From: Escherichia coli O157:H7
GTDB taxonomy: Bacteria > Pseudomonadota > Gammaproteobacteria > Enterobacterales > Enterobacteriaceae
Assembly: GCF_013167455.1 (NCBI RefSeq)
Contig: NZ_CP038328.1
DNA length: 64,000 nucleotides
Strand: one strand, 5' to 3'
The position numbers and the translations under genes are program-made. A model generated the notes under the pieces. That model ran no database searches. It was not told the DNA's origin and saw only the letters and a list, made by a program, of their open reading frames with translations. Every line of letters begins with the position of its first letter. The stretch's first letter is position 1. This document shows positions 61,221-62,282 of this stretch, piece after piece.

Positions 61221-62282
61221 ATGAAAACGATGCTGGCAGCTTATTTACCAGGAAATTCGACCGTCGATCTGCGGGAAGTTGCAGTGCCGACGCCGGGGAT
61301 TAACCAGGTACTGATCAAAATGAAATCCTCCGGAATTTGCGGAAGCGATGTCCACTATATCTACCACCAGCACCGCGCTACGGCGGCGGCATCCGATAAA
61401 CCGTTGTACTAGGGATTTATCAACGGTCATGAACCGTGCGGGCAGATTGTGGCGATGGGGCAAGGCTGCCGCCATTTTAAAGAGGGCGACCGCGTGCTGG
61501 TGTATCACATTTCTGGCTGTGGTTTTTGCCCGAACTGCCGTCGCGGTTTTCCTATTTCTTGTACTGGCGAAGGAAAAGCGGCTTACGGCTGGCAGCGTGA
61601 CGGCGGTCATGCCGAATACTTGCTGGCGGAAGAAAAAGATCTGATCCTCCTGCCGGATGCGCTGAGCTACGAAGATGGTGCGTTTATCAGTTGCGGCGTT
61701 GGCACGGCCTATGAAGGGATTTTGCGCGGCGAAGTTTCCGGCAGTGATAACGTGCTGGTGGTCGGTCTGGGGCCAGTCGGCATGATGGGGATGATGCTGG
61801 CGAAAGGTCGCGGTGCAAAACGGATTATCGGCGTTGATATGCTGCCGGAACGTCTGGCGATGGCAAAACAGTTAGGAGTGATGGATCACGGCTATTTAGC
61901 GACCACTGAAGGTCTGCCGCAGATAATCGCCGAACTCACTCACGGCGGCGCGGATGTTGCGCTTGATTGTTCCGGTAATGCCGCAGGTCGCTTACTGGCA
62001 CTGCAATCCACCGCTGACTGGGGGCGGGTGGTTTACATTGGTGAAACCGGAAAAGTGGAATTCGAGGTCAGCGCCGATCTGATGCACCATCAACGGCGGA
62101 TTATTGGCTCCTGGGTGACCAGTCTGTTCCATATGGAAAAATGCGCCCACGATTTGACTGACTGGAAGCTGTGGCCGCGTAACGCCATTACCCATCGCTT
62201 CTCGCTGGAACAGGCAGGTGATGCCTATGCGCTGATGGCGAGCGGCAAATGCGGGAAAGTTGTGATTAACTTCCCGGATTAA
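61221..62282 (+). pseudogene. yphC: Zinc-dependent alcohol/threonine dehydrogenase-like gene interrupted by an in-frame TAG at codon 64
   Basis: One frame from ATG 61221 to TAA 62280..62282 (354 codons); codon 64 (61410..61412) is TAG, directly before the conserved GHE motif (...KPLY*GFINGHEPCG...). The ORF track splits it into 61188..61412 and 61449..62282. Confidence 0.75.

Follow-up and report, generated by a model that had tools for sequence, protein, structure and literature searches.

The yphC frame of Escherichia coli O157:H7 raises a simple question: does the amber codon that interrupts it mark a loss of the encoded putative sugar dehydrogenase, and at which step in the history of the lineage did it appear? 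In the window analysed here (the whole stretch of DNA, 64 kb), re-reading and translation of the gene gave a frame that runs from ATG 61221 to TAA 62282 with a single in-frame TAG at codon 64 (Table 1), precisely as a sequence-only reading of the window had described it. The stop lies between the peptide segments AAASDKPLY and GFINGHEPCG, 5 codons upstream of the GHE motif (residues 69–71), in a frame that comprises 353 sense codons in relatives.

The interrupted yphC frame and its surroundings

Two start codons have been used for yphC. The PGAP start is ATG 61188, which gives 364 aa in relatives, and the curated record of Sakai has ATG 61221 instead (353 aa); counted from the former, the premature stop falls at codon 75. 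ATG 61221 is preceded at a distance of 4 nt by the Shine-Dalgarno sequence GAGGG, which is better than that of ATG 61188, and we thus favor the shorter form and consider codon numbering from 61221 reasonable. In the list of open reading frames, the yphC frame appears as two pieces: an ORF of 74 aa that begins at the upstream ATG (61188..61412) and one of 277 aa that begins at a GTG (61449..62282).

Table 1. Features of the yphC region, in window coordinates
Feature	Position	Strand	Description	Basis
tRNA-Glu, anticodon UUC	7836-7911		only tRNA in the window	
yphF	57615-58598	+	intact; ABC sugar transporter, same cluster	
yphE	58621-60132	+	intact; ABC sugar transporter, same cluster	
yphD	60157-61155	+	intact; ABC sugar transporter, same cluster	
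Alternative upstream yphC start (PGAP), ATG 61188	61188..61220	+	11 extra codons; product 74 aa vs 63 aa	ORF list, PGAP records
yphC pseudogene	61221..62282	+	putative Zn-dependent NAD(P)-binding medium-chain dehydrogenase	same sequence in Sakai (ECs_3411) and EDL933 (EDL933_RS18185)
P58S, C to T	61392	+	earlier lineage change; in all O157 strains, not in O55:H7 or K-12	haplotype comparison
Premature amber TAG, codon 64	61410..61412	+	ancestral CAG (Gln), C to T at 61410	genome comparison, 61-mer in 290 complete genomes
In-frame downstream remnant ORF, ATG codon 79	61455..62282	+	275 aa; without Cys40, His70 and Glu71	ORF list, deposited proteins
A190G, C to G	61789	+	3 residues past the GxGxxG loop; on the stem to typical O157:H7, predates the stop	haplotype comparison
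yphB, aldose 1-epimerase family	62294..63166	+	intact	

The other genes of the cluster are intact, in agreement with the sequence-only reading. The yphF, yphE, yphD, yphB and yphA genes are full length with few substitutions relative to K-12, yphG shows no internal stop on translation, and at the position of yphH there is a full-length ORF. The start of yphB lies 11 nt past the terminal stop of yphC and has its own ribosome-binding site, AGGAG. The premature stop leaves ~870 nt untranslated, and Rho-dependent polarity on yphB is a possible result.

Comparison with complete genomes places the window firmly in a known lineage. Of 5426 complete E. coli genomes, 5380 have a yphC that the 1062-nt sequence matches, and dozens of O157:H7 genomes, Sakai, EDL933, TW14359, EC4115 and Xuzhou21 among them, carry it with 100% identity. 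Sakai and EDL933 agree with the window at all 1062 nt of the gene, with TAG at the same codon. Their records mark the defect: Sakai ECs_3411 is labeled 'yphC, pseudogene; Zn-dependent NAD(P)-binding oxidoreductase', and RefSeq flags the yphC of EDL933 (EDL933_RS18185) and of strain 7784 as a pseudogene with an 'internal stop'. Over the 8780-nt overlap with the Sakai locus only one base differs, 5 kb upstream in yphG, and the nearest complete genomes are ~1 base apart from the window over its final 25 kb as judged from bit scores. On these sequence comparisons, the window is that of an ordinary typical E. coli O157:H7.

The differing base lies at 56190 (yphG codon 652), where the window has T (TCT, Ser) and Sakai, PV15-279, CB9615, K-12 and a draft genome described below (GCA_011818505.1) have G (GCT, Ala). 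A 61-mer carrying this T has an exact match in none of the 5426 complete E. coli genomes, and the base is either a SNP private to the source strain or a mistake in its assembly.

Pieces of yphC have also been deposited as proteins. From O157 there are separate database entries for the 63-aa and 74-aa N-terminal pieces (for example, UniProt Q8X448_ECO57, 'putative oxidoreductase') and for a 275-aa C-terminal piece, deposited as 'zinc-binding dehydrogenase'. By exact protein look-up, these fragments (63, 74 and 275 aa) occur on hundreds to at least 1000 contigs. The fragment entries are annotation noise from the pseudogene.

Taken together, the Q64stop change is almost certainly an already known, annotated and lineage-fixed loss of function, present in essentially all typical O157:H7. 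New here are only the placement of the stop on the stem to typical O157:H7 and a rare intermediate allele that combines Q64 with G190. Within the literature collection searched for yphC in O157, the yph operon genes and the O157 locus tags, no paper was found to treat the pseudogene or the substrate of the operon.

Base change and distribution of the stop in E. coli

Relative to K-12, the yphC gene of the window shows 97.1% nucleotide identity, and the 31 differences consist of 28 synonymous changes together with P58S, Q64stop and A190G. K-12 has CAG at codon 64, and a C-to-T transition at 61410 therefore accounts for the stop. The sequence-only reading had offered CAG to TAG as an example of a very recent point change, and both parts of that guess were borne out: CAG is found in K-12, O55:H7 and the early O157 strains, and the frame after the stop is undamaged, with no added decay downstream. 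It had further proposed to compare codon 64 with K-12 and other strains, with the reservation that a reference already carrying TAG would make the gene a fixed pseudogene of lower novelty. This applies to the O157:H7 references, as Sakai and EDL933 have TAG, and does not apply to K-12.

The same distinction extends across the species. A 61-nt probe centered on the TAG has an exact match in 290 of 5426 complete E. coli genomes, whereas the same probe with CAG matches exactly in only four, PV15-279, 493/89, F3113 and LSU61, all four of which have yphC annotated as intact (WP_000700830.1). The O55:H7 strains CB9615 and RM12579 likewise have CAG at codon 64. Among the genomes that were read directly, TAG occurs only in typical O157:H7 and CAG in all others. 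An amber allele was another option that the sequence-only reading had raised; one peculiar to a single strain is at odds with a TAG fixed across typical O157:H7. Close relatives thus have a sense codon where this lineage has an in-frame stop, and the stop recurs in independent genomes, as the probe count, the count for the G190 marker below and the fragment proteins on at least 1000 contigs all indicate.

The G190 marker has an exact match in 294 complete genomes, compared with 290 for the TAG 61-mer; the difference points to four typical O157 genomes with an extra difference near the stop. Four complete genomes do carry the G190 marker without an exact TAG 61-mer (around 61381-61441). Pseudo-revertants with Lys, Glu, Trp, Tyr, Ser or Leu at codon 64 in the typical background were sought in a collection of 15 billion proteins, and none was found.

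The intact counterparts share the gene, its length and its neighborhood (yphGFEDCBA beside hca). CB9615 YphC is the same protein as that of K-12 (b2545, WP_000700787.1), and the CB9615 gene differs from the window at 3 nt. K-12 and O55:H7 encode the full-length protein of 353 aa (364 aa by PGAP), whereas the window has the three changes P58S, Q64stop and A190G.

Order of changes on the lineage to typical O157:H7

The three changes form a graded series among related strains. O55:H7 has Pro at residue 58, Gln at 64 and Ala at 190; the early O157 strains LSU61, 493/89, F3113 and PV15-279 have Ser58, Gln64 and Ala190; and typical O157:H7 (the window, Sakai and EDL933) has Ser58, the stop at 64 and Gly190. 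In the stepwise model of O157:H7 evolution, LSU-61 is a presumed intermediate, 493/89 represents the sorbitol-fermenting German clone of clonal complex A4, and PV15-279 is a beta-glucuronidase-positive O157:H7 of A5, from which typical O157:H7 (A6) derived (PMC7175801, PMC6256406). The haplotype series, combined with the positions of these strains in the model, indicates that the stop arose on the A5-to-A6 stem.

The uidA gene, which we compare from the literature only, offers a parallel on this stem. It was inactivated by a frameshift in typical O157:H7 and is intact in the beta-glucuronidase-positive lineage (PMC6256406), and is thus, like yphC, a carbohydrate-related gene with a loss-of-function mutation placed on the same stem. 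By comparison, uidA is a classic lineage marker with a frameshift and a diagnostic phenotype, whereas yphC has a nonsense substitution and no known phenotype.

A further allele bears on the order of the changes. By exact-sequence look-up, the protein with S58, Q64 and G190 was found on seven draft-genome contigs. In one of these drafts, GCA_011818505.1 (hereafter L013), positions 10001-11095 hold an intact yphC with G190 and Q64. L013 differs from Sakai at 3 of 13,062 positions. When sites across the same 13 kb were polarized by comparison of PV15-279, CB9615 and K-12, six were found to have changed on the A5-to-A6 stem. L013 is derived at four of the six, including 61789 (A190G), and ancestral at the other two: codon 64 (61410) and, 4.8 kb off, a synonymous site in hcaF.

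The derived G190 lies between the two ancestral sites, and the simplest explanation is that L013 left the stem before the stop arose. True reversion was considered as a source of the allele with Q64 and G190 and rejected, as it would require back-mutation at each of the two sites independently, or recombination in two separate tracts. On the simplest reading of these sequences, the order is P58S, then A190G, then Q64stop, and the rare O157-like lineage of the L013 type looks like a surviving branch off the stem to typical O157:H7. The stop arose once on the A5–A6 stem, after P58S and A190G, and has been passed on clonally from then on.

Consequence for YphC and competing explanations

For domain and motif analysis, codon 64 of YphC was restored to Gln. 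The repaired protein contains the Pfam domains ADH_N (28-146, E = 2e-24) and ADH_zinc_N (185-312, E = 1e-25), the two domains of the medium-chain Zn-dependent alcohol/polyol dehydrogenase family, and the description of the gene as a yphC-like zinc dehydrogenase in the sequence-only reading was correct. It resembles solved alcohol, xylitol, threonine and sorbitol dehydrogenases with E = 1e-36 to 1e-29 (best 1e-36 to 1e-35). With medium-chain Zn dehydrogenases such as threonine 3-dehydrogenase, sorbitol/xylitol dehydrogenase and IolM, it shares these domains, GICGSD (38-43, with Cys40), GHE (69-71, with His70 and Glu71), the four-Cys structural zinc lobe (Cys 100/103/106/114) and GxGxxG (182-187). 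It differs from the named enzymes in that an NCBIfam search gave no equivalog-level assignment, every equivalog being far below its cut-off (threonine 3-dehydrogenase, 170 bits vs 380; scyllo-inosose 3-dehydrogenase IolM, 168 vs 450), and in that the protein is truncated in the window.

The TAG parts Cys40 from all other motifs, so that the full set is not found on one polypeptide, and the complete set of ligands and motifs is missing from the 63-aa product and from the 275-aa remnant alike. With the C-to-T transition turning Gln64 (CAG) into amber (TAG), translation would end at codon 64 and yield a peptide of 63 aa, or of 74 aa if it starts at the upstream ATG. This peptide would keep the catalytic-zinc Cys40 and would be without His70/Glu71, the structural-zinc Cys 100/103/106/114 and the whole Rossmann domain; the N-terminal fragment is probably unstable. 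Two in-frame restarts, codon 77 (GTG) and codon 79 (ATG), are not preceded by a convincing Shine-Dalgarno sequence, and a reinitiation product from either would be without Cys40, His70 and Glu71. Given the position of the stop relative to the motifs, no active dehydrogenase is expected, and loss of YphC enzyme activity is a strong inference.

Whether this loss was favored by selection is a separate question. The nonsense mutation could have been positively selected during a metabolic narrowing toward typical O157:H7; the alternative is that drift or hitch-hiking fixed it when the clone passed through a bottleneck. The shared stem of the yphC stop and the uidA inactivation is in line with this (PMC6256406). 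Furthermore, K-12 and O55:H7 have the same YphC protein although their genes differ at 28 synonymous sites, whereas the path from O55:H7 to typical O157:H7 shows three nonsynonymous and no synonymous changes. Across yphGFEDC, the path has six nonsynonymous changes (yphG T601I, yphE C218S, yphD R22H, and yphC P58S, A190G and Q64stop) and two synonymous ones, compared with 30:164 in the deep comparison of K-12 with O55:H7 over yphG-yphB (Fisher p = 5e-4). Path counts span window 55221-63166 (yphG to yphB) and positions 1-13062 of the Sakai locus. The adjacent hca genes on the same path show no nonsynonymous vs two synonymous changes.

These counts are, however, tiny. The ratio of 6:2 is close to the neutral expectation, and relaxed constraint fits as well as selection does. 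A raised nonsynonymous-to-synonymous ratio is general in very recent clonal divergence. An enrichment of changes within yphC itself (three of 11 in 13 kb) was not significant (P = 0.067) and was dropped. The numbers, small as they are, are suggestive of relaxed constraint on the yph cluster. We consider positive selection of the stop unlikely, and regard as equally doubtful the broader proposal that, between O55:H7 and O157:H7, selection on the entire yph cluster for sugar uptake and oxidation was relaxed or reversed and that this culminated in the loss of yphC. If that proposal is true, the loss of yphC would belong to the niche-driven metabolic narrowing that took beta-glucuronidase and sorbitol use.

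The stop could also be a functional amber allele, in which a suppressor tRNA (for example, a supE-type glnV) or programmed readthrough or recoding gives full-length YphC. A Gln-inserting suppressor or the near-cognate tRNA-Gln(CUG) would, by the genetic code, give back the ancestral residue, and the frame downstream of the TAG is undamaged. That undamaged frame is nevertheless accounted for by the recency of the change. The 64-kb window contains no tRNA with a CUA anticodon, its sole tRNA being tRNA-Glu(UUC), and no recoding signal was seen. A supE44-type glnV, which is exact in 155 genomes, appears among the 60 matches listed in strains that resemble K-12-type laboratory strains by name and genome size, none of them O157. 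Programmed recoding would be expected to conserve the stop among orthologues, and the opposite is found, with CAG in every other lineage read directly. E. coli is not known to have pyrrolysine machinery. Natural UAG readthrough in E. coli is typically well below 1%; such low-level readthrough could insert Gln, the ancestral residue. We judge a functional amber allele to be highly improbable. Least credible of all is an error at a true CAG, for although the source record is not error-proof, with one private base in yphG, this option of the sequence-only reading is ruled out by the identical TAG and 61-nt context in 290 independently sequenced complete genomes, and it is contradicted by the truncated products deposited from at least 1000 contigs and by the reference annotations that mark the stop.

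A lineage-fixed loss of function that arose on the stem to typical O157:H7 is accordingly the reading we retain. Its significance is small: the pseudogene is already on record, the pathogen has been studied intensively, and the gene has no known virulence role. In this regard, the disagreement among annotation pipelines is of practical note, as some records list pieces of yphC as real proteins and protein databases are polluted as a result. For the lineage itself, the nucleotide change C190T in yphC provides a clean one-base marker for typical O157:H7, comparable to the uidA mutation. It sets typical strains apart from beta-glucuronidase-positive O157:H7, sorbitol-fermenting O157 and O55:H7 relatives, and also from the rare intermediate lineage that bears A190G.
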